A stretch of DNA of 64,000 bases from Dehalococcoidia bacterium (GTDB taxonomy: Bacteria; Chloroflexota; Dehalococcoidia; UBA2979): NCBI GenBank assembly GCA_965262725.1, contig OZ253555.1, positions 320,001 to 384,000 of the forward strand, written 5' to 3'. Below are positions 3,001 through 20,623 of the stretch, piece by piece (within the stretch, counting starts at the first letter, position 1; the number at the start of each line of letters is the position of its first letter). The translations under genes were made by a program, and so were the position numbers. The notes under the pieces were generated by a model that ran no database searches, was not told the DNA's origin, and worked only from the letters and a program-made list of their open reading frames with translations.

Positions 3001-4910
3001 CGGCGTGAGCCGAGGTTGGAGTCCGCGAAGACGACGTAGCTGCCCTTCGGCAGTGGCGCGCCGTCCGCGAGAGAGGTGGAGTAGAGCCGGCCCACGTAGC
3101 GGTCCTCCTCACTCGTCTGGACGGTCCACTCACGAAGGCGAGTCTGCGAAGGCAGGAAGGGGTTCCAGACTCTCCTCTTCCGATCGGTGTTCTCGATCTG
3201 GACCGAGCGCCAGATGTCGATGTACTCGCGGGCCAGCAGCATGCGGGCCTCGCCGTCGGTGAGCGGATACAGCTGGAAGTGCACCGTCGGGGCGTTCACC
3301 GCGCGGAAGAAGAGCTCCGGCTCGGTGGTCGCCGAGTACGTCGCGAACCAGCTGGGGATGGAGAGATCCATCGACCGTCCGGGCAGACGGGGCGGCGCCG
3401 GGGCCCGGGTGGTGAACGGGAGCTCGTACGGCGGCAGCGGCGCTCCGCCTCGATCCCGGATGCCCCCCGCGATGGTGACCGTGTACTGAGTCGAGTGCTC
3501 GAGCGGAGCGTCGATGACCACCCGGTCGTAGTACGCCCACACGCTGACGTCGTCGGGGTCGACACCGCTGACCGAGATCCGGCCCTCGACGGAGGAGGGG
3601 TCCAGCGGGTTGTTGTACGTGAACGCGATGTTCCGCCACGGCAACGCCGTCTGGGAGCCGTGGCGGGGCTCGGTGCGGATGAGGCGCGGCCAGTCGAGCG
3701 TGGTGAACGTCGCGATGCGCTCAGCGGGCGTCGCCACGCCTGTGGCGCCGAGCATGCCGGCGCGCGCGATCACAGTGTACCGGGAGCTGCGCAGCAAGGG
3801 CCTGAGCGGCGTGAGCGTGACGACGGTGCCGCCGTCGCTCCAGGTGAGGGCGACCGGTACGTCTCGATCATCCGGGCCCGCGTACAGGCCCCGGATGATC
3901 TCGGCCTCCCGCCCGGTCGGGCCCAGGTTCGTGATGCGGAACCGAAGACCCCGCTCCACCGACGCTCGGTCCATCGGCTGGTTGAAGGTGACCACGATGG
4001 CGCGGTCCGGCTCCACGAACTTCGAGTTGTGGGCGGGGGAGATACCATCCACCCGCGGCAGGGTGGTGGTGAAGCGCCACGCGACGTCCTCCTCCAGCAC
4101 CCCGTCCGCTGCCGACGTCAGCCCCGCCGGGATGCGCACTTGGTACTCGGTGCTGGGGCGCAGATCGCTCGGGGTGAAGCGGTACAGCGAGGTGTTGAGC
4201 CACTCGCCCTCGCCGTCGAGCGGCGGGTCGAACTCGAGCACCGTCGGGCCGGGCCCTTCCTGCAACACCGTGAGCGGGGCCACCGCGCGGTTGAACTGGA
4301 CGAGGATCTGCGCGTTCGAGGGCACCCCGCGGTCGCCGTCCCCGGGGATCATGTAGACCACCTCGAGCTGGCCCTCGACGGTGAAGGCCTGCTCGTAGTC
4401 CTGGTCGAGTCCGGCGGCGGCGCCGTCCACGAGCACGCGGTAACGACCGCCCCGTCCCCAGCCGGGGAACTCGGGCTGAAACAGCAGGGTCCGCTCGTCG
4501 GCCCACACGAAAGAGCCCGCGATAGGTGGCTCGACCGCGACGAGCTGGCTGGCGTCTGTTGTCGGCGGGGGCTCCCGGAACACGATCTGTGCAAACGCGA
4601 GCCGGGGCACCTCCTCCCCGGCTGGCGTGACCGTGACGGGCGGTGGTGGTGGGGCGGGCGTCGGCGTGGCGGGAGTTACGGTCGGCGTGGTGGGAGTCGC
4701 GGTCGGCGTGGCGGGAGTTACGGTCGGCGTGGCGGCCGGCGTCGGGGGAGTGGTGCTCTGCGGCTCGGCGGTCGGCGCGATGACTCTCTCGACGTTGCCG
4801 TCACCGCCTGGGCGAGCCAGTACGACCGCGACCACGATCACGGGCGCCAGGATGATGGCCAGCCAGAGCCACGGTGGCCCGCGCTGCCAGCCCGCGCCCG
4901 CGTTGCTCAT
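1..4910 (-). CDS. Bacterial alpha-2-macroglobulin family protein (N-terminal TM, Pro/Thr linker, Ig-like and MG domains); runs off the window's left edge
   Basis: ATG at 4910 overlaps the PBP1C stop (ATGA). Spot translation gives MSNAGAGWQRGPPWLWLAIILAPVIVVAVVLA and the MG2-type motif TEKRPIYRTGETV-like (ERPIYRTGETVSYKAVVR). The frame is still consistent at 250-360. Absent from the ORF track because no stop lies in the window. Confidence 0.88.
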   Translation of the reverse strand, partial: MSNAGAGWQRGPPWLWLAIILAPVIVVAVVLARPGGDGNVERVIAPTAEPQSTTPPTPAATPTVTPATPTATPTTPTVTPATPTPAPPPPPVTVTPAGEEVPRLAFAQIVFREPPPTTDASQLVAVEPPIAGSFVWADERTLLFQPEFPGWGRGGRYRVLVDGAAAGLDQDYEQAFTVEGQLEVVYMIPGDGDRGVPSNAQILVQFNRAVAPLTVLQEGPGPTVLEFDPPLDGEGEWLNTSLYRFTPSDLRPSTEYQVRIPAGLTSAADGVLEEDVAWRFTTTLPRVDGISPAHNSKFVEPDRAIVVTFNQPMDRASVERGLRFRITNLGPTGREAEIIRGLYAGPDDRDVPVALTWSDGGTVVTLTPLRPLLRSSRYTVIARAGMLGATGVATPAERIATFTTLDWPRLIRTEPRHGSQTALPWRNIAFTYNNPLDPSSVEGRISVSGVDPDDVSVWAYYDRVVIDAPLEHSTQYTVTIAGGIRDRGGAPLPPYELPFTTRAPAPPRLPGRSMDLSIPSWFATYSATTEPELFFRAVNAPTVHFQLYPLTDGEARMLLAREYIDIWRSVQIENTDRKRRVWNPFLPSQTRLREWTVQTSEEDRYVGRLYSTSLADGAPLPKGSYVVFADSNLGSRRKALMFSVVDTAIITKQSHDQVIAWVLDYDTGEPLDGIDVEHASYAGTRYLQGTTLTDADGLADLHIPNARWGRYLLRLDDDGRFGVASTKWQQGSEPWKLTVPFSSSTFDLLAHVYTERPIYRTGETVSYKAVVRRDDDATYSLPRPSETFTIVVTDSKFRELSSTTTVVNEFGTLEGEFVIPEGGATGTYSIRLYGSEGRRYLGPAPGQITSTTFTVEQFRVPEFRVRVETPEEHYIDGEQIPVETTAEFYFGGGVEGATVDWAVLASPTRIRVEGYEDYSFSHYRYYSAPDGSPLRAQGSTEAGPGGRASYEVTAALMAGEGTQLFTLSATVRDESAQAVAGSTAVTVHPASWYAGIRTDSYIAAAGEPEVVRLVTVDVEGVIAPRRPVTVRAYERRWVTTKVGATGGGRYYQSELVETEIDVQSATTAAAAEASIQFTPPSSGSYRLVAESVDNEGRVARSATYLWVSGHSHAPWRVRNDDLIELIPDRDEYEVGDVAEVLVPAPFAGAVGLVTIERGGILSTEVRRFETNSEVLRIPIEDRHLPNIYVSVVLYRAPTGDDPVPRYHIGYVELPVSTAPRRLDVRIEPDRERAAPGETVRYEVTVTDWKGRGVAAEVSVAIADQAVLSLAEEVGPDGMRAFWFQRALGVATSSSLGVSIDRHNDILKVPEDASGKGGGGDTSRLRQDFRNTALWEGQLETDENGRASFELKLPDNATTWRAQARAVSGTTQVGEATSELLVTLPLLVRPALPRFLRVGDEVTLRALVRNGTTSARDVTVTVRADGLTLDGSVARIVRIQPDRSEVVEWPARAVAEGTAQVRFDASAAGGLGDAVEIALPVHLNVTAETTATGGVIDGALAVEAVYLPDYAIREQGELEISVQGSLVGTLADELHRFAPRRYERSERVASRVIATVAVKRSQGGDLDPGQTNQLHADVAKLISWQRYDGGWAWCADCRTDLWITAWVLIALSEAEDAGARVSQGVAEDASDLISRHV
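4660..4735. repeat. 21-bp tandem repeat (about 3.5 copies) encoding the TPATPTV linker of the A2M protein
   Basis: gtcggcgtgg(c/t)gggagt(ta/cg)cg units starting at 4660, 4681, 4702 and 4723. Confidence 0.85.
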
Positions 4911-7183
4911 GGTCCCCGCACCTCATAGCGAGAACTCGCCGACGCGGTCGCGCCGTCAGCGAAGGTCGCCACTACCTCGAGCGTGTGCGCGCCGACGGTC
5001 ATCGGCCACACGACGTAGGCGTCGGTGCCCTGAGCGCTGCCAACAGGCACGCCGTCGACGCGGAACTCGATGCGCTCGACCCCGGCGGGCGTCGCGGCAC
5101 GGAGCAGCGTCTCCTGGCGGCGGAGTTCCGGGGCAATGTACAGCACCGCCCCTTCCGGTGGTCGCACGATCGCCACCCGCGTCGCCGATTCACGCCCGGA
5201 ATCTCCGGCGAGCCGGACGCCGCGGCGCGCCGCCCAGGGCCGCGCCTCCACGGGCGGATTGATGGCGAGCGCGCCGTCGGATCCCCGGACGTAGTACTCC
5301 TCGGTCTCCGTGGGCTCCGTCCCGGCCAGGAACCACTCGCTGACGGGTGAGGGGCAGTGCGGGCCGGGCAGCAGGCCCGTCGGCGCGCAGACGGCGGCGG
5401 TCACCACCGTCGGCGGTACGTCGAACGCGCGCACCGGACGGTCCGCCGCCACCGCCTCGATCACGTCGCGCCAGATCGGGGCGGCGCCGACGACGCCGGT
5501 GAGCCCCCGCATCGGCTCGGAGCGGGCGTTCCCAACCCACACCCCCACCACCCGGTCGGGCGTGAAGCCGACGGTCCAGTTGTCGCGGAACTCGAAGGTC
5601 GTGCCGGTCTTCACCGCGGCGGGGAACGGCGTCTCCAGCACGGAGCCGGCGCCGAATCCCGGCTCGCGCGCGATCGGGTCGCTGAGGATGTCCGCCAGCA
5701 GGAAGGCGTGCTCGGGGGACATCACGAGTCCCTGTTCAGGCGCCTCACGCTCGTACAGCACGTCGCGTGTCGCCTCGTCCCGCACCCTCTCGATCGCGTA
5801 CGGCTCGGCCAGCAGCCCACCATTCGCGATCGCGCCGTACGCGGCCGTGAGACCGAGCAGCGTCACCTCGGCCGAGCCGAGTGCGAGCGAGAGTCCATAC
5901 GGCTCCGGTGAGGCGATCTCACGCAACCCGGCGCGGTTCGCGCTGCGGACCAGCGCTCCCACCCCGATCTCGTCGAGCGTGCGGACGGCCGGCACGTTGA
6001 GCGAGGACGCAAGCGCGGTCCGGAGCGCCACCGGGCCGCGGTAGCGGTGGTCGGCGTTCTCCGGCGTATAGACGCCGATGGGGGTCTCGAAGCTGGACGG
6101 GACGTCGAGCAGCATCGACGCGGCCGTGTAGCCCTGCTCGAGGGCCGCCGCGTACAGGAGCGGCTTCATCGCCGAGCCGGGCTGGCGGGGTGCCAGCGTC
6201 ATGTTGACCTGCCCCGCCTCCGCCTCGTCGAAGTCGGAGCTGCCGACCAGCGCGAGCAGCGCACCGCTCGCCGGGTCGATCACGACCACTGCCCCGTTCC
6301 CCGCCCCCCACGCGGCGATGCGCTCGAGGCGGACCACAAGCGAACGCGTCGCTGCACGCTGCAGCGTGGCGTCGAGAGTCGTCTCGATGACGAGTCCGGG
6401 CCGGTCGACGAGATCCGGCCGAAGCGACGCCAGCTCACCGAGCACCATCGTGGCGAAATGCGGAGCGAGCGGGGCGTCCGCCTCGCCCGCGAAGCCGAGC
6501 GGGTAACCGGACGCCTCCGCAGCCTGCGCCGCCGTGATCACGCCCGTCGCGGCAAGGCGATCGAGCACGTAGCGCTGCCGGGAGAGCGCGCCCGCCGGGG
6601 CCTGCTCGTCGCCGTACAGCGCCGGCGACTGCGGCAGCCCCGCGAGGTAGCTCGCCTGCGCCAGATCGAGGTGGCGCGCGCTGACACCGAAGTAGCGCCT
6701 CGCCGCGGCCTCGATGCCGTACGCGCCCCGGCCGTAGTAGACGTGGTTGAGATACGTCTCTAACAGCTCGCGCTTCGGGAGGCGGGCTTCGAGTTGCAGC
6801 GCGATCAGCGCCTCGCGGGCCTTGCGCAGCAGCGCCGGCGCGTCGTCGTCGGGCAGGTACAGGCGCCGCGCGAGCTGTTGGGTGAGCGTCGACGCGCCGC
6901 GGGGCTGGCCCTGCCTCGCCAGAGCGTCGGTGAGTGCGCGCGCAACCGCGAACGGATCCACTCCAGGGTGACGCCAGAACCGCTGGTCCTCGGCGGCGAC
7001 GGTGGCCGACACGACTATGGGCGCGATGTCGTCGAGGGAGACCGGGATGCGGGTGCCCTCGGACGAGTCACGGAGCAGAGGCACGCCATAGCGGTCGACG
7101 AGGAGCGTTCCGGCCGCCGGGGCCTGCTCGTCGAGGGGCGTCAGTGGCGCGAGATAGGCGTAGGCCAGCAGGGCTCCCGCCAC
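4907..7183 (-). CDS. pbpC: Penicillin-binding protein 1C (transglycosylase/transpeptidase)
   Basis: EDQRFWRHPGVD, GASTLTQQLAR, SAMK (SxxK), SLN and KTGT motifs; C-terminal PBP1C Ig-like domain; classic pairing with A2M. Start codon uncertain. Confidence 0.9.
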   Translation of the reverse strand: MAGALLAYAYLAPLTPLDEQAPAAGTLLVDRYGVPLLRDSSEGTRIPVSLDDIAPIVVSATVAAEDQRFWRHPGVDPFAVARALTDALARQGQPRGASTLTQQLARRLYLPDDDAPALLRKAREALIALQLEARLPKRELLETYLNHVYYGRGAYGIEAAARRYFGVSARHLDLAQASYLAGLPQSPALYGDEQAPAGALSRQRYVLDRLAATGVITAAQAAEASGYPLGFAGEADAPLAPHFATMVLGELASLRPDLVDRPGLVIETTLDATLQRAATRSLVVRLERIAAWGAGNGAVVVIDPASGALLALVGSSDFDEAEAGQVNMTLAPRQPGSAMKPLLYAAALEQGYTAASMLLDVPSSFETPIGVYTPENADHRYRGPVALRTALASSLNVPAVRTLDEIGVGALVRSANRAGLREIASPEPYGLSLALGSAEVTLLGLTAAYGAIANGGLLAEPYAIERVRDEATRDVLYEREAPEQGLVMSPEHAFLLADILSDPIAREPGFGAGSVLETPFPAAVKTGTTFEFRDNWTVGFTPDRVVGVWVGNARSEPMRGLTGVVGAAPIWRDVIEAVAADRPVRAFDVPPTVVTAAVCAPTGLLPGPHCPSPVSEWFLAGTEPTETEEYYVRGSDGALAINPPVEARPWAARRGVRLAGDSGRESATRVAIVRPPEGAVLYIAPELRRQETLLRAATPAGVERIEFRVDGVPVGSAQGTDAYVVWPMTVGAHTLEVVATFADGATASASSRYEVRGP

Positions 7184-7355: not shown

Positions 7356-7622
7356 GATCTCTCGCCATCGCGGCGTGAGAGCCCGTTCTTAGGTTCAAAA
7401 TCTCCCATTTCGCCCCCTGACCGGCGGCGGGTGAGCCATCGCCGTCGGGCGGTTCGCTGCTCCCGCGACCCTCTGCCTCGTCGGGCCGCAGATCACGCTC
7501 AGGTCACGTCCACTTCACGCACGGATCACGGTGCGGTCACGAGATTTTGACCGCCCGGGACCGGAGGGGAGAGGGTGATGACGCGAGGCGAGAGCGGCAT
7601 GGAGCAGCGATGGAGGAGTGGG

Positions 7623-8591
7623 ATGGAGCAACTGACGCTGCGGGATCTCATCGGCTACTGGGACTTCCACAACCGCACCGAGGGAAAGTCCCCGAACACG
7701 ATCCGCTGGTACAGCTATGAGCTCGGGAAGTTCGAGCACTTCCTCGTCAGGGAGGGCTCATCGACGCTCATCGCCGAGATCGGCGAACCGCAGGTGCGGG
7801 CCTACATCGCGTACCTGCAACAGAAGCGGAAGTGGGACGACACCGAGTTCTGCCCGACGGCCGAGGAGGGACTCTCGCCCGGCGGCATCCAGAACCGCAT
7901 CCGCGCCCTCAAGGCCTTCTTCAACTGGCTGCACCGCGAGGGCTACACGGAGAGCTACCGCCTCAAGCATCTCGCCAACTACCGCGTCCCCAGCCGGGTC
8001 GTCGACGTGCTGACCGAGGCTGAGATAGGCCGTGTGCTCGCCGCCTGCGACACGAAGTCGGACTGGGGAGCGCGCGCCTACGCGATCCTCACGCTCATGC
8101 TCGACTCCGGCCTGCGCATCAGCGAGGTGGCCGGGTTGCGGACCGCGGAACTCGAACTTGACGCCGGATGGCTCAAGGTTCTGGGGAAGGGCGGCAAGGA
8201 GCGGATCGTGCCCTTCGGCACTGCCACTCAGCGGGCGCTCTGGCGCTACCAGCACCACTACCGACCGGAACCGCTGGGCCCCGATGTCTACTTCTTCCTG
8301 ACGCTCGACGGGCGCCCCCTGGGGCGTAGCGCGCTCACGCAGGCGATCAAGCGCGCCGCGATGCGCTCGGGCGTAACGCGTCTGCATCCTCACCTCTGCC
8401 GACACACTTTCGCGACGCGCTACCTGATCAACGGAGGCGACGTCTTCAGCCTCCAGCAGATCCTGGGCCACTCGACGCTGGAGATGGTGCGTCGCTACGT
8501 GAACCTCGCCTCCGCGCACGTGGCCATCCAGCACCGAAAGTTCTCGCCAATGGACCGGATCGCGGGGATGAGGTCGCGGACCAGCGGATGA
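7623..8591 (+). CDS. Tyrosine recombinase/integrase (intact)
   Basis: SGLRISE, KGGKER, HLCRHTFAT, LGH and RRY catalytic residues; N-terminal SAM-like domain. ORF track starts at 7575. Confidence 0.92.
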   Translation: MEQLTLRDLIGYWDFHNRTEGKSPNTIRWYSYELGKFEHFLVREGSSTLIAEIGEPQVRAYIAYLQQKRKWDDTEFCPTAEEGLSPGGIQNRIRALKAFFNWLHREGYTESYRLKHLANYRVPSRVVDVLTEAEIGRVLAACDTKSDWGARAYAILTLMLDSGLRISEVAGLRTAELELDAGWLKVLGKGGKERIVPFGTATQRALWRYQHHYRPEPLGPDVYFFLTLDGRPLGRSALTQAIKRAAMRSGVTRLHPHLCRHTFATRYLINGGDVFSLQQILGHSTLEMVRRYVNLASAHVAIQHRKFSPMDRIAGMRSRTSG

Positions 8592-8873
8592 TGGTCACGC
8601 CACGCGTTCTTGTAGCCATCGGCCGGGGTCGGCGGGAACAAGCACGTCGGCCGATGCCGGCGAAACAGTCGCTGGGGGGTGAATCGGCGCTTCCGAGCAG
8701 GCTCCATCACGCCGCGACAAGCCGATCGACGCAACGTGCGTAACCATCGCCGCGTGTCTCGACGGCACTGGACTAGCCCCGAACGTGTCTTGGTCCTCCT
8801 CGTGGTTGCGTTGGCCGCACTGCTCGTGGCGTATGTGGTGGGAAGTTCCTCCGAACCCACACGGGCCGCGAAA

Positions 8874-9026
8874 CCCAACGGTTGTTGAGTTCGCCGCCAG
8901 CCGTCCCAGCCTGTGCCACCACCTCGCCTTGGAGCCCTCTCTGAACCTGATATGACGGGCTCACGTGCCGTTCCGTCCTGACGCATCCTGCTCCGTTGCG
9001 CCACGCATGCCTACGAAATGCCTACG
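8874..9026 (-). repeat. att-arm module with tentative tRNA-Leu(CAA) anticodon-arm core
   Basis: cccaacggttgttgagttcgcc resembles 42059 cccaacggtttttgagtttcgcc; ends in tandem ATGCCTACG (9007, 9018). Confidence 0.55.
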
Positions 9027-9302
9027 GAGACGAGCCCCCCTTGGTCGCGGCTCTGCCGCTGCCGTCTGTTCTCACCACCGGGCAAACATCGGCATGAGTG
9101 CTCAGCTGTACGTAGCGATGGGTTGTCTGGCGGAGTGCGCTCTCGCTGCACAATGGCGCCCACGCTCGGATGGCCTGGGCGGGGAGCTTGAGTAGATTCC
9201 GGCCCCGCCTGTTGCAACCATGCTGGTCGTTGTCGAATGTGGCGACTCCTCACCGACCCCGACCCCGACCCCAACGGCAACGCCAACATCGACGCGGGTG
9301 CT

Positions 9303-9493
9303 ACCTCCACACTGCCAGGGCGCTAAGCTCGATCCTGCCCGATCCCATGCGGTCCCGCTGAGTGCCGACCAATCCTGTTTGTTCGGCTATTGCCGAGGGT
9401 GGTGTTGTCTTCTGTACCGCCCCGTCCCAGGCCGTACCACCCAACATGTACCCAAGATGTACCCACCGAAGCGGAACTGACCGGCCCCGGACG
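9303..9493 (-). repeat. att-arm module, tRNA-Ala(GGC) family, with truncated core
   Basis: acctccacactgcca core followed by about 170 bp shared with 35258, 44428 and 54542; tandem ATGTACCCA at 9446 and 9457. Confidence 0.85.
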
Positions 9494-9862
9494 GCGGGCC
9501 ACTTCTCATGAGAGTCCAACGACGTGCTGTTCGTGCGATCGCCCGTGGCCACCCAGGCTCCAGAGTTGCGCGGCAATTACCTCAAGGTCCAAGGAAGTCG
9601 TGCGCGGCTTTCAAACTGGCGGGCAGAGCTCAAGCGGGCCGCTCGGCTGGCGCCCGTGGGACGTGGCGAAGATGAAGTCGTTTCGTGTGTCCGAGTTCAC
9701 CTTCAAGGGTAGCCGCCCTGGCTATGTCCGGGGTGACTCGGATATGCACCCCGTGCACTGCGAGTTCTAGATCGTATGGAGCGCCTCACTCCAGTTCACT
9801 GATGTGGTTTCTGCGTTGAAGGCAGAGCCGGATCAGGGAGGGAGGAGGCATGCAGGAGCAAG

Positions 9863-16076: not shown

Positions 16077-16249
16077 CGAATGGGTGCTCCCTGTGGCTGT
16101 GACGTGATTCGGTCAAAAACCATTGTCCCAGCTACAGCGGAGCACCCAACCCCAGCCGCTCGCGCACTCTTCTTCGGTTCGCGGTAGGGATGCCGGTTGC
16201 CCGGCACCCCCCGCACAGATCCGGACGTGCCCTCTCGGGCATCCGGCTC

Positions 16250-17578
16250 CTACCTCAAGTGCGTGACGGCAAATCGCTCCGCAGGCCACGGGTGAAGGAT
16301 GGAGATTCGGGGCCAGTGTTTCTGGCACAGGGCAAGGATGCGCTCCCACGTGAAACGGTCGCGCTGCGACCGCCGTCGGAGAACGCGCAGCCAGAGCCGC
16401 TTCACGAAACGAACAAACTGCGTGAGCGCCGGCGAGCTGGTCGGCACCGCGTAGTAGCCAAGCCACCCACGCAGTACCCGCCCCAGCCACTGCCCCGTCG
16501 TCACGGGGTTGTCGTGCATGCGCCGCCACAACTCGGCCTTGATGGCCTTCAGCGTCCGGCGCATCCGCTTCGCAACGGGCTTGCGCCCCAGCCCGAATCT
16601 CCCGTCGCGTCGGGTCCGGCAGTAGTGCGTCATGCCGAGAAAGTCGAACGTCTCCGGTCGGCCCTCCCCGCGCTTCCGCCTGTTCGCCAGCGCGAACCTG
16701 CCGAACTCAAGTAGACGGGTCTTCTCCGGGTGCAGCTCCAGCCCGTAGGCCGCGAACCGCTCCCGGAGTGCCTTCATGAACCGCACCGCATCGCTGCGGT
16801 GCTGGAACCCCAGGACGAAGTCATCGGCATACCGCACGATGTACGCCTCGCCCCGGACCTCCCGCGGTCGCCACTCGCGCGCAAACCAGTCGTCGAGCAC
16901 GTTGTGCAGGTACACGTTCGCAAGCAGCGGCGATATCGGCGCCCCCTGCGGCATCCCCCGCACGAAATCGACTTCCGGCTCCGCGTCCATGACGCCGACG
17001 CTCAGCCACTTTCGTATCAGGCGCAACACCCGCTGGTCCCCGATGCGCATCTCCAGAAACGACATCAGCCGCCCCCGGTCGATGCTGCCGAAGAACTCCC
17101 GGATGTCCACCTCGACAATCCAGCTGACCTTGCGCCGTTCGACCGCGTAGGCCAGTGCGTCCAGCGCGTCATGCGCCGAACGCCCCGGCCTGAAGCCATG
17201 CGAGAAGCCGTAGTAGCCCGACTCGTAAATCGGGTTCAAAAGATTGTCCACCACCGCCCGCTGAACGATCTTGTCCTCCAGCGAGACGATACCGAGCGGC
17301 CGTATTCCCCCGTCCGGCTTGGGTATCTCTACCCGCCTGACGGGCTTCGCCCGGTACGCTCCACGGTGTACGCGGCCATGCAGGTCGAGCAATCGCTCGT
17401 CCAGCCCGTCCCCGTATTCTCGCCACCTCACCCCGTCCACGCCCGGAGCCGCATCCCGCTTCAACGCGAGATACGCCTCCCGCAGCGCCTCCGGCGTGAT
17501 GTGGTGCAAGAGCGCGGTGAGTTTCTCTCCCGGCTTCCGTTCCACGAACTGCCGTATCCTCTCCGCTCCGGGTGACAC
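16250..17578 (-). CDS. ltrA: Group II intron reverse transcriptase/maturase, no endonuclease domain
   Basis: TALLHHI, APGVDG, RPLGI, PQGAPISPLLAN, YADD and FDFLG motifs. Confidence 0.93.
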   Translation of the reverse strand: MSPGAERIRQFVERKPGEKLTALLHHITPEALREAYLALKRDAAPGVDGVRWREYGDGLDERLLDLHGRVHRGAYRAKPVRRVEIPKPDGGIRPLGIVSLEDKIVQRAVVDNLLNPIYESGYYGFSHGFRPGRSAHDALDALAYAVERRKVSWIVEVDIREFFGSIDRGRLMSFLEMRIGDQRVLRLIRKWLSVGVMDAEPEVDFVRGMPQGAPISPLLANVYLHNVLDDWFAREWRPREVRGEAYIVRYADDFVLGFQHRSDAVRFMKALRERFAAYGLELHPEKTRLLEFGRFALANRRKRGEGRPETFDFLGMTHYCRTRRDGRFGLGRKPVAKRMRRTLKAIKAELWRRMHDNPVTTGQWLGRVLRGWLGYYAVPTSSPALTQFVRFVKRLWLRVLRRRSQRDRFTWERILALCQKHWPRISILHPWPAERFAVTHLR

Positions 17579-17689
17579 CGCACCCCGACTCTGCGTCCGG
17601 ACCGTGCCGGTGCTTTGAGGATTCCTCTCGGTTGGGGCCCTTTGCTCCAGCGACTCCGCCGGGGCTCGCGCCCCCTTCTATGAGGGTCG

Positions 17690-18023
17690 TCTGATCCGCA
17701 AGGCCGACGTGGCGGCCTTCTGCGCCGTTCTACCGATCGCGCCTCCCGTCCGCAGCCCTGTGGTGGTTGTCGGTGCCGATGCGAGTGGTGCCGCCGTCTT
17801 GTCCCCGGGACGTTGTGGTGACCGTGCTTCTATTCGCACTCGTCGAGGGGCCGCTCCGGGCCCGGTGCATGATGATCAGCCTGTCTCCAGGGTGTGGGCG
17901 CTGCCATCTTGTTCCCGTCCTCGTTGGGACCAGGGGGTTCCGCAGTCGCCCGCGTGTCGGCATCTCTCGTATCCTCCGAAGCCCACCGGCCGCCCGGTCG
18001 CCTCGCTCCTCGCGTGCTGTCTG
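17690..18023 (-). ncRNA. Candidate bridge/seekRNA of the IS1111-type element
   Basis: Non-coding 3' end containing paired segments that match the target (17932-37, 17908-14) and the donor junction (17871-75, 17827-33), each pair flanking a stem-loop. Confidence 0.72.
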
Positions 18024-19115
18024 CTACGCCGCCTCGGCCGCGCGCGCGTGGCGCAACGGCTCGTAGACCTCCCCGCTCTTCCAGAGCGCAAGCATCAGCA
18101 CCGCCAGTCGCCTCGCGACCGCGACGACGGCACGCTTCTTCGCATTGCCGGCCCCCGACTCCGCGTAACGCAGCCCCCACCTGCGGAGGTCGCTGTCGGG
18201 GCCGAAGGGGCCCAGGATGTAGTGCGCGGCCTGGTTCAGCACCCGGCGCAGCGCCACGTCCCCTTCCTTCGTGATCCGCAGCTGGGGCTGCCGATCACCG
18301 GAATCGCGGCTCCGGGGCACCAGCCCCAGGTAGGGCCCCACCTCCCTGTTCTTGGGGAAGCGGGCCGGGTCCTCGATGGTGAGGATGAAGGTGAGCGAGG
18401 TGATCGGGCCGACGCCCACGATCTGCCGCAGCGCGCCGGTCTCCGCGTAGCGCTCGCACATCGCGGCGAGCTTCTTGTCGGCCTGGCGGATCTCCCCGGT
18501 CAGCTGCTCGATCTGGTGGAGCACCGGCAGCAGCGCCGGGCCCAGCTCCTCGGGGATGTGCTCTCTGACCGCGCGGTGGAAGGCCGGCGCCGTGCAGCCC
18601 GGAAGCGCCGCGCCCCACGCCTTCACCGCGCCCCGGACGTGGTTGATGAACATCGTGCGCGCCCGGACCAGCGCCTCGCGGCTGCGGAGCACCTGGAGGT
18701 CCGCCTGCGCCATGGCGCTTCGGTGCCGGATGGGGAAGAGGAGCGCCGGGTCGAATCGGCCGAGCCGTGCGAGGTGCTCGGCATCGGAGCGGTCGGTCTT
18801 GCGCTGGCTGCGCGCGATCAGCCTGACCTGCCTCGGGTTGGCGACGATCACGTCGTGACCGAGCTCCGCGAACATCCGGCTCAGCCACGGGGACCGCGGC
18901 CCCACCTCCATCACCACCCGCGCGCCCTGCAGTGGGGTGAGCGCCCGCGTGAGCGCCGCGGTCGTGGTGCGGACTCGCTCCTCCCGCACGATCTCCCCGT
19001 CGCCACCGAGGACGCAGAGGTGACTGTAGCGGTCGCTGACGTCGATGCCGACAGTCACGAGCTCCGCATCCCCCACCTTCCTGCTCTCTGTGACATCTGA
19101 TGTACGCTGTGCCAC
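18024..19115 (-). CDS. IS110-family recombinase (DEDD)
   Basis: VGIDVS, VMEVG, KTDRSDA, IVGVGPIT, YLGLVP...SG and AVVAVARRL motifs; GTG 19115 after AGGAG. Confidence 0.93.
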   Translation of the reverse strand: MAQRTSDVTESRKVGDAELVTVGIDVSDRYSHLCVLGGDGEIVREERVRTTTAALTRALTPLQGARVVMEVGPRSPWLSRMFAELGHDVIVANPRQVRLIARSQRKTDRSDAEHLARLGRFDPALLFPIRHRSAMAQADLQVLRSREALVRARTMFINHVRGAVKAWGAALPGCTAPAFHRAVREHIPEELGPALLPVLHQIEQLTGEIRQADKKLAAMCERYAETGALRQIVGVGPITSLTFILTIEDPARFPKNREVGPYLGLVPRSRDSGDRQPQLRITKEGDVALRRVLNQAAHYILGPFGPDSDLRRWGLRYAESGAGNAKKRAVVAVARRLAVLMLALWKSGEVYEPLRHARAAEAA

Positions 19116-20623
19116 GGTCGGTCTCCTACCTCTCTCGGCTCGCCTGAGCCGTTCTCCTGGGCCACCACGTGAGCCCGTGCTTGGAGGGGAAGTATCCCCT
19201 CTGAGGAGGGGACCGACCCTCATGTCATCTTGTTCGCCGCCTTCATCGCTCGTACGGCCCCATCAGACTGCTGCGCATCGTGCATCATCGGCTACGGTTT
19301 ACGTCCCTTCCCGACGCGGTCCCGGCGTACGACTCGTCGGGACAACGCGCAGCTCTCCCAAGTCCCGGCGATAGACGTGTGTGCGTGCATGGGGTCTTCG
19401 ACACCGTGGGGCCCGACCACGACTCGCCAGTAGCGCCGTCGCCGGTATTGCCTTCGACCAATCCAAGAGCCTCGGCACCCCAAATGGCCCTTTCGATGCT
19501 CATTAGCCCCGCCCGCACACCCCGCTGCCGACGCTTCACAAGCCGCCTCGCGACGACCCGCGCACGGCTCGCGGAATGACATGAGTGGCTAGCTCTTTGC
19601 CATAGAGGACTTCCACCTCCTGCCTACTCGCCAGTTAGCCTGGCGCTCTGGATCAGGGCTAAGCGCCCTTGAACTCATGGCGCTCGCCAGGGAGACAGGC
19701 CTACCTATCGACTGGTTCGTCGCAGAATCGTCTCCGACCGTTACCAGCCACCGTGCGGGCAGTCTCAGCGCGTCAACGATCGTCAACGTGCGTGTCGATG
19801 TCCTCGTGCGGGACGTGACCCAGCTCATCGAGATGCATCTGCTTCGCACGGACGCGAAGCGGCCCGACCTGCGCGTTCCCCGCGATGTCGCGGGCGCCGA
19901 GGCGGCCGCACGCGCCGTGCGCACCCACCTCGAAGCCGACGCTGAGCACCCCATCGACCTCGCCGCGGCGGCTGAACGACTCGGCGTCTTCGCCTACTCG
20001 CTCGCGTTGCCGCAGAGCGACGTGGATGGCGGCTACGTGGCGCTCGACGACCAGCTCGGCGTCGCCCTGATCAACGGTGACCAGCCGTCGGCACGCCGCC
20101 GCTACACACTCGCTCACGAGATTGGCCATCATGTCTTCCAGGACGAGTATGCCGTTGACGTCGCCGCCACCGGCCGCTCGGAGACCGAGCGCACTATCGA
20201 TGCCTTTGCGATCCATCTGCTGTTGCCGCGCGCCACACTCGCTGACCGGTGGCGCGAGTTGGACGGCGACGATGAGCCCCGGACTGCCGCGCTCATCATC
20301 GGTGCCGAATACCGAGTCAGTTGGACAGCGCTCTGCGCGCAGCTCATCAATCTCGGCGTCGTGGAGCGATTCCGAGGCGAGATCATGCGGGAAACGACAC
20401 CGGTCGGGGGCGAGTACGCGGAGCTCGGCCTCGACATCGTCGAGGAGCTCGATGCGCCCTACGTCCCTCGCGGCGTCGCGCGCGCCGCCATCAGCGGCTA
20501 CCGCAGCCACCGCCTCGGCTTAGGACGAACCCTCGAGCTGCTCCACGGCACACTGGGTGAAGCGGACCTGCCCGACCGCCACGTCGTTCCGCTTGATGCG
20601 CTCGCCGGCGAGCTGCGTAGTCT

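Follow-up and report, generated by a model that had tools for sequence, protein, structure and literature searches.

An IS1111-type insertion sequence with a predicted guide RNA and its target site in a multicopy group II intron of a Dehalococcoidia bacterium

The locus described here raises the question of what brought an insertion sequence (IS) into a group II intron, and whether the place of its insertion was specified by an RNA. It lies in a window of 64,000 nucleotides from the genome of a Dehalococcoidia bacterium (assembly GCA_965262725.1, contig OZ253555.1, positions 320,001–384,000 of the forward strand); coordinates below refer to this window unless stated otherwise. The genome was 3.67 Mb in length with a G+C content of 70.6%, and its nearest relatives in the public genome collection were metagenome-assembled genomes (MAGs) of Dehalococcoidia. 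Our analysis indicates, with a probability of roughly 0.9, that the IS, hereafter element A, is an intact IS1111-type member of the IS110 family that is guided by RNA to a site in domain IV of a multicopy group II intron (Table 1).

Both recombinase domains were found in the protein encoded by element A: PF01548 (DEDD_Tnp_IS110) with an E-value of 2.7e-19 over profile positions 1–151 of 155, and PF02371 (Transposase_20) with 7.2e-18. The NCBIfam model NF033542, "IS110 family RNA-guided transposase", scored 217 bits against a cut-off of 140. In a phmmer search of the PDB, only the C-terminal domain was significantly aligned, with IS621 (E 2e-9) and ISCro4 (E 3e-10). The D/E/D/D residues presumably lie in GIDVS, MEVG and KTDRSDA, which were assigned by eye from known motifs. 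The sequence GLVPRSRDSG fits the conserved serine motif G--P----SG (GL-P----SG in PMC11187229).

The borders of the element were confirmed by metagenome contigs from three of the four runs examined (three studies), in which 17674 was joined to 19229 with three ambiguous letters; these joints represent the empty form and skip exactly 1554 bases. The exact cut is ambiguous by 2–3 nt because CT (CTT here) is shared by the site and the ends. Empty sites had a single copy of this dinucleotide and filled sites had one at each junction, as for insertion without target duplication, and the same was observed for the related element E described below.

The non-coding ends of element A measured 115 nt on the left and 347 nt on the right (3' side, 17677–18023). 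Subterminal inverted repeats of 7–17 bp and a longer non-coding region downstream of the transposase gene are hallmarks of IS1111 elements (PMC11187229, PMC11208160), and the guides in their seekRNAs follow the order top strand, then bottom strand, the reverse of IS110 types (PMC11187229). Element A has 10-bp subterminal repeats, a predicted guide RNA on its 3' side and the top-strand guide 5' of the bottom-strand guide; layout, repeats and guide order, rather than phylogeny, suggest its assignment to the IS1111 type. A conspicuously conserved stretch, GGCCGCCACGUCGGCC and the UUGCGGA that follows it (17702–17717, minus strand), lies ~25 nt inside the right end and was invariant even in relatives of only 68% identity; it could be a terminator-like hairpin or a part of a junction promoter.

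The host was recognized as a group II intron by its ribozyme domains and by the reverse transcriptase (RT)/maturase open reading frame (ORF) in domain IV, and it has the same orientation as element A. The Rfam model RF02005 (group-II-D1D4-6) matched at 19613–19392 (170 bits, E 2.8e-50); the match of RF00029, the model of domains 5 and 6, at 16251–16177 scored 39.9 bits, just below the gathering score of 40. The intron was present in 12 near-identical copies at different loci, comparison of which set its borders and showed them to be intron-precise. The insertion point lies 161 nt past the D1–D4 match and 98 nt upstream of the RT ORF start, in conserved domain IV DNA just 5' of a GNRA-capped hairpin; we refer to it as the A-site.

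Four full-length copies of the element (A–D; query positions 1–1554), differing at five positions only, were found in the genome, each with the flanks ...CGCGCCCCCT / TCTATGAGGG...CATGTCATCT / TGTTCGCCG (slashes in sites mark the border of the IS or its insertion point). All four stood at CCCCCT/TGTTCG within group II introns. A first-pass annotation of the window, made from the sequence alone, had recognized an IS1111-type recombinase at 17677–19230, predicted this empty target with its CT core and raised the question whether other copies also sit in group II introns. The profile matches and the IS1111-type layout agree with the first of these claims, the uninterrupted target in paralogous introns and across the contig joints with the second, and the position of the four copies answers the question in the affirmative.

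Uninterrupted, the 11-mer CCCCCTTGTTC occurred 11 times in the 3.67 Mb, ten of them in introns: nine near-identical ones (at least 99% identity) and one diverged intron. In a third intron type with a differing right half-site (GGCGAACA/AAGAGG; GAACA/AAGAGG), the A-site was unoccupied in all three copies. The occupied introns A, C and D stand at different loci and have different 5' exons, and copy B is hosted by a different, ORF-less intron lineage with flanks roughly 72–87% identical to those of A.

The shared site would say nothing of targeting if the IS were a cargo of the intron, having entered once and then spread by retrohoming of the 3.5-kb composite intron. Domain IV is a place where introns reportedly tolerate inserts, and the position of the IS there in the orientation of the intron, the identical sequences of IS copies C and D and the occurrence of occupied introns at different loci with intron-precise borders are consistent with such a history. 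However, in a single-nucleotide polymorphism (SNP) matrix of 10 intron copies, the D backbone grouped with the empty copy 3361100 and the C backbone with the empty copies 2028804 and 2476411. Despite the identity of IS copies C and D, their host introns are each closer to other introns than to one another. This indicates independent insertions, and composite-intron retrohoming was rejected on this matrix as the source of these two copies. The clearly different intron lineage around copy B and the empty state of nine of the 12 near-identical introns also contradict the transport of the IS as cargo, which we consider very unlikely. Judging from these comparisons, element A inserted at this site on at least three or four separate occasions and was not merely copied along with the intron.

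What could direct element A to this site is a predicted RNA in its 3' non-coding region, in which two pairs of short guides are separated by stems. In the orientation of the IS the target reads GGCGAACA-AG-GGGGCGCG (GAACA-AG-GGGG), corresponding to CCCCCT/TGTTC on the plus strand of the window (site GGCGAACAAGGGGGCG). The 5' target guide CCCCCU reads the top strand, namely the core and the right half of the target, while the bottom strand is read by the 3' target guide GAACAAG, across the left half and the core. The donor guides read the joined ends ...CATAGA-AG-ATGAC... with the same geometry.

The covariance model R1 of this scaffold matched all five guide-bearing copies in the genome (A: 17971–17824) as well as diverged relatives. 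The outer stem of the target module was invariant in alignment A2 (nine sequences), with one GC-to-CG swap in the diverged relatives; the pairs of the inner target hairpin were kept in relatives, with a CG-to-AU change in two sequences, and five pairs of helices 4 and 5, in the donor stem region, had compensatory changes. When the diverged set was aligned to the model, 97.2% of the cells were paired and compensatory changes were seen in 7 of 26 pairs, versus at most one in slid controls, figures that are favoured by the fitting of this alignment to the structure model. For the close set A2, RNAalifold paired GAUGCCGA over a long range with the donor 5' guide and placed a GUGC–GCAC hairpin over the donor 3' guide. 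These pairings, possibly alternative folds, were not adopted because the GUGC–GCAC pairing was broken in two to three of the nine sequences.

The genome also contained a close relative, element E, with 93–96% identity to A and itself interrupted by an IS21-family element. It stands at GCGGAAGCT/GAGGGAGG (GGAAGCT/GAGGGAG), inside an HTH_Tnp_1 (IS3-type orfA) gene. Alignment of the 3' regions of A and E revealed a nearly identical scaffold in which all four guide segments were changed. The 5' target guide AACCCCCU of A is replaced by CGGAAGCU in E, the flank of which reads AG/CTTCCG in IS orientation, and the 3' target guide GAACAAG is replaced by CCCUCAG, the left flank being CCCTC/AG. On the donor side, the change of UCAUC to CCAUC in E and relatives is accompanied by that of the left end from AGATGAC to AGATGGC, and the change of AUAGAAG to AUGGAAG by that of the right end from CATAGA to CATGGA.

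A total of 14 guide sets, including those of A and E, were tabulated from the same genome, a genome of the same genus (G003) and other Dehalococcoidia MAGs. The two target-guide segments were the only hypervariable columns of the near-invariant 148-nt scaffold in alignment A2, metagenome contigs differed from the window exactly at guide positions, and transposases 88–94% identical to that of A sat in quite different targets. Of 21 insertions scored, 20 had a right flank and 17 a left flank; rows sharing a guide set are not independent, and the second tandem copy in L053, L048 (the L029 locus), the truncated L057, and L060–L062 and L064 (scaffold pattern mismatch) were left out. The 5' guide matched its own flank over at least six consecutive bases in 14 of 20 insertions, compared with 3 of 380 non-cognate pairings, and these three correspond to one site shared by two elements. 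For the 3' guide, with the run counted from the invariant AG, at least five bases matched in 11 of 17 insertions and in 9 of 324 non-cognate pairings. Matches of 5–7 nt within 347 nt are weak alone; the segments are regarded as real guides because they covary with the target and the ends in relatives. The anatomy of the element, its site specificity and the covariation of guides with both targets and ends are directly observed.

These results agree with most of what the first-pass annotation had said of the guides. The four motifs stand on the minus strand exactly where it had placed them (Table 1), the donor motifs flank a further stem as it had described, and the match of the segments to the target strands and the donor junction is supported by their joint change in E. 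Covariation of guide and target among homologous elements, which it had named as a check, is given by the counts above. The stem between the target guides, read there as GTCCC with AGGAC, was recovered as a hairpin, but with four pairs (GUCC with GGAC) instead of five. The element had also been described as programmed against a segment of intron RNA upstream of the RT ORF: the location holds, while the molecule recognized would, by family precedent, be double-stranded intron DNA and not intron RNA. Finally, its caution that the matches are short was justified.

Several observations weigh against our interpretation. The matches of element A itself comprise only 6 and 7 nt for the target and 5 and 7 nt for the donor. 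Its single-sequence fold was no more stable than those of shuffles (z = -0.23), and a search of the non-coding region against Rfam 15 returned nothing at E up to 1. No RNA run with the sequence was present among the 24 runs listed, and no circle junction was seen in the four metagenome runs examined, all of which consisted of contigs. The eleventh perfect 11-mer (genome position 2481572), where no Rfam intron was detected, was unoccupied. In the clade comparison, the flanks of L058 and L056 did not fit their own guides, L045 and L049 failed on the 5' side, and the internally deleted L063 was found in a site fitting the guides of L045–47 but carries those of L049/50. The left end of L059 (record OZ252046.1, 2326–3330, another genome) stood in the very A-site, with the unrelated target guides GCGCGCUCC and CGAGUAG; this copy has an internal deletion in tnp and a 3' end cut off after the donor stem, and it is likely a chimera that arose by recombination between family members. 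The exceptions are all rearranged or unexplained copies.

The short matches of 5–7 nt, the fold of ordinary stability and the presence of L059 in the same site with different guide segments would also be expected if the recombinase protein alone recognized the intron site, as a classical site-specific recombinase, the matches being due to coincidence or ancestry. Against this, in an element as close as E all four segments differ from those of A in accordance with its target and ends, cognate matches exceed non-cognate ones by a wide margin (14/20 versus 3/380), and transposases of 88–94% identity to that of A occupy quite different targets, which makes recognition by protein alone exceedingly unlikely. 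An IS110-type element with its functional guide RNA in the 5' (left-end) non-coding region and another role (promoter, terminator) for the 3' region is hardly credible: some IS110-type elements do have a downstream non-coding region (PMC11187229), and the transposase of 363 aa is slightly above the 330–350 aa quoted for IS1111 types, but the left non-coding end is short (115 versus 347 nt), the covarying guides all lie in the 3' region, and both the 10-bp subterminal inverted repeat and the order of the guides (top strand, then bottom strand) are characters of the IS1111 group (PMC11187229).

We therefore retain RNA-guided insertion of element A into the intron as the preferred explanation. 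By analogy with studied members of the family, the RNA probably exists, binds the recombinase and serves movement via a circle. The 3' non-coding region would be transcribed into an RNA of ~150 nt that guides a DEDD recombinase; two short guides in one module would read both strands of the target, and two guides in the second module would read the joined ends of the excised circle. Once the element has been excised as a circle, its junction and the target would be brought together by the RNA, and strands would be exchanged at the AG/CT core common to both, which would lead to insertion without target duplication. Living inside another mobile element, the IS would harm no host gene, and new sites for it would keep arising.

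Table 1. Coordinates of element A, its predicted guide RNA, the host intron and the IS-2 copies
Feature	Position	Strand	Description and basis
Element A, complete IS110-family (IS1111-type) IS	17677..19230	minus	1554 bp; four full copies with identical ends; empty sites in paralogous introns; contig joints
Transposase/recombinase gene	18024..19115	minus	363 aa; GTG start at 19115; AGGAG Shine-Dalgarno at 19120-30
Left subterminal inverted repeat	19214..19223	minus	ATGAGGGTCG; 10 bp, 7 nt in from end
Right subterminal inverted repeat	17680..17689	minus	CGACCCTCAT; 10 bp, 3 nt in from end
Predicted seekRNA/bridge RNA scaffold	17824..17971	minus	148 nt, 3' non-coding region; alignment A2, covariance model R1
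Target-binding module	17896..17951	minus	outer stem GGGCGACUGC (17942-51) with GCAGCGCCC (17896-904) closes internal loop holding both target guides; minimum free energy and consensus folds
Target guide, 5' arm	17932..17939	minus	AACCCCCU (AACCCCCT as DNA); CCCCCU (17932-37) complementary to AGGGGG
Inner hairpin between target guides	17917..17930	minus	GUCC-CAACGA-GGAC, 4 pairs
Target guide, 3' arm	17908..17914	minus	GAACAAG; identical to left half of target and core (GAACA-AG)
Donor guide, 5' arm	17871..17875	minus	UCAUC; complementary to GATGA of left end (AG/ATGAC...)
Stem between donor guides	17836..17868	minus	GCAC with GUGC, enclosing hairpin GGGCC with GGCCC; proposed structure
Donor guide, 3' arm	17827..17833	minus	AUAGAAG; identical to right end and core (...CATAGA-AG)
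Host group II intron	16177..19648	minus	1918 nt without IS; 5' end GAGCG at 19648, 3' end ...CCGCGAAC at 16177
Intron-encoded RT/maturase ORF, intact	16250..17578	minus	442 aa; PF00078 1.4e-36; TIGR04416 326.9 bits (cut-off 300)
IS-2 copies, same genome (G000:C1 coordinates)	1921491-1923463; 1952029-1954124; within 2020834-2026852; 1956371-1958599	antisense to intron	L042 ~3030-5125 and 7372-9600

RNA-guided targeting by IS110 and IS1111 elements was established in 2024 (PMC11208160, PMC11187229); the mechanism is already known, and what looks new here is the kind of target. Full-text literature searches, judged from listings and abstracts, yielded no description of an IS110 or IS1111 element that targets a group II intron; the supplementary target tables of PMC11208160 and PMC11187229, which lay outside the range of these searches, might list such targets. 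ISEc11, ISPa11, ISKpn4 and ISPst6 (Siddiquee et al. 2024, PMC11187229) share with element A a DEDD transposase with the GL-P----SG motif, a long non-coding region downstream of tnp, and subterminal inverted repeats with short terminal extensions. They also share a top-strand match that lies 5' of the bottom-strand match and overlaps it at the crossover, the RNA being a predicted one in A, and, as in the clade of A, each close relative has its own target. Unlike this group, element A has a high-GC Dehalococcoidia host, a larger transposase (363 versus 330–350 aa) and a target in a group II intron instead of repetitive extragenic palindromic (REP) sequences, attC or transposon ends, and it is known from sequence alone.

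IS621 (Durrant et al. 2024, PMC11208160; 8WT6 and related) resembles A in its two-module RNA with left and right target and donor guides, each including the shared core dinucleotide (CT on one strand); both its target and its donor are programmable (PMC11208160). Unlike that of A, the RNA of IS621 is located in the left end with the guide order reversed, and its donor guides form a simple internal loop, whereas those of A flank a stem in an apparent multi-branch region, which is where the donor guides of many IS1111 members lie (Durrant et al., PMC11208160). IS4321/IS5075 and the IS1111-attC elements (cited in PMC11208160) are, like A, site-specific, with targets within other mobile elements and one orientation. 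Those targets are Tn21-family terminal repeats or integron attC sites, whereas group II introns serve as hosts here, as do IS3 orfA and IS21 ends for relatives.

Besides the IS3-type orfA targeted by element E, two targets of relatives were identified. That of G3c lies in an IS21-family element, 12 nt in from its left end, as judged by likeness to the end of the IS21 element in the genome studied. L050 is inserted at nucleotides 10–12 of the 5' end of a group II intron, antisense (GAGCGCCAGG-CT-ACCTGGTG), and its guides fit; the metagenome contigs differing from the window at guide positions carry this L050 guide set. Since the identified targets of relatives lie in mobile elements, the clade appears to aim at other mobile elements.

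A second, unrelated IS110-family element (IS-2, ~1.97 kb) occupied another intron site, CCGGGAC/.../TGGGAGG, ~118 nt 5' of the A-site. It encodes a 370-aa DEDD transposase, has 12-bp subterminal repeats (ATGGATGCCTCG) and was found antisense in four intron copies; the host intron of copy B carries both an element of the A type and IS-2. In the 3' non-coding region of IS-2, a unit resembling a guide RNA occurs twice in tandem, with differences between the two in short segments; the guide reading of IS-2 is ambiguous because the matches are split between the two units. Together, the A-site, the L050 site and the IS-2 site make group II introns a recurrent host for the IS110 family here. It is conceivable, and for now a tentative suggestion that we would not favour, that a young IS1111-type clade has diversified its guides to live almost entirely in mobile elements, with introns repeatedly chosen (three sites), IS3 orfA and IS21 ends as further targets and introns that for their part border on IS ends, as a layered network of RNA-guided hyperparasites. 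If this is true, the co-oriented insertion in domain IV could let the IS be transcribed within the intron and perhaps spread with it.

Rearranged copies were observed among the relatives. At L053:3600-4620 (Dehalococcoidia MAG OZ244720.1), a tandem array lies downstream of a single transposase gene; it contains two complete and one partial copies of the seekRNA model and five right ends, one of which runs straight into the donor module (…CATAGAAG/CAGGATGTGCC…). Recombination at an internal GGAAG-CAGG site resembling the donor junction may have produced this arrangement. Two other genomes (L049:2340-2400 and L064:2340-2400) each have a group II intron in antisense orientation whose exact 5' terminus directly borders position 4 of the IS left end (…GCGCTC/TGGCATGAG…), with the cognate intron site of the IS intact 10 nt away. 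The usual 5' exon of the intron (…CCTGATCCA) resembles the antisense IS end (…CTCATGCCA); the 3' exon expected from intron retrohoming into the IS left end was searched for at L049 and L064 and was not found. The junction may be due to homing of the intron into the IS or to aberrant recombination of the IS. The IS21-family element interrupting E (2.6 kb, 1708744–1711347, L071) encodes IstA, with rve and Mu-transposase C-terminal domains, and IstB; 15 near-full-length BLAST matches of 96.9–100% identity, this copy included, were found in the same genome.

As to the class of the host intron, for which the first-pass annotation had suggested class E, a tblastn search against plasmids gave only generic "ltrA" matches of 55–57% identity, and a literature search by the name of the Rfam model returned nothing on class. 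A repeated 3' exon (CGAAGAAGAGTGCGCGAGCGGC…GGGTGCTCCGCTGTAGCTGGGACAATGG) was common to five intron copies: A (window 16100–16176), C, 2473310, 2028804 and 1925415. The 5' exon of the intron copy at 2473311 is the terminal repeat of the IS21-family element. Homing of the introns themselves seems to occur next to, or within, other repeats. In two intron copies that are otherwise near-identical (1875648–1877443 and 1522334–1524988), the RT ORF was split by other insertions of ~1.3 and ~2.2 kb, at positions ~440–469 of the 3' part of the intron.

Elements A and E, two insertions in one genome that are 93–96% identical, differ essentially at guide and end positions and have two targets, represent a clean natural case of guide reprogramming and a ready-made guide-swap pair from a lineage distant from the enterobacteria whose systems have been studied to date. 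For annotation, our reading would explain why these introns look "broken" by a transposase gene, and the covariance model R1 offers a means of detecting the guide RNA in Chloroflexota of high G+C content. Group II introns would join REP, attC and transposon ends among the natural targets of IS1111 elements, and RNA-guided recombinases would be able to specialise on retroelements as safe, self-renewing landing sites.

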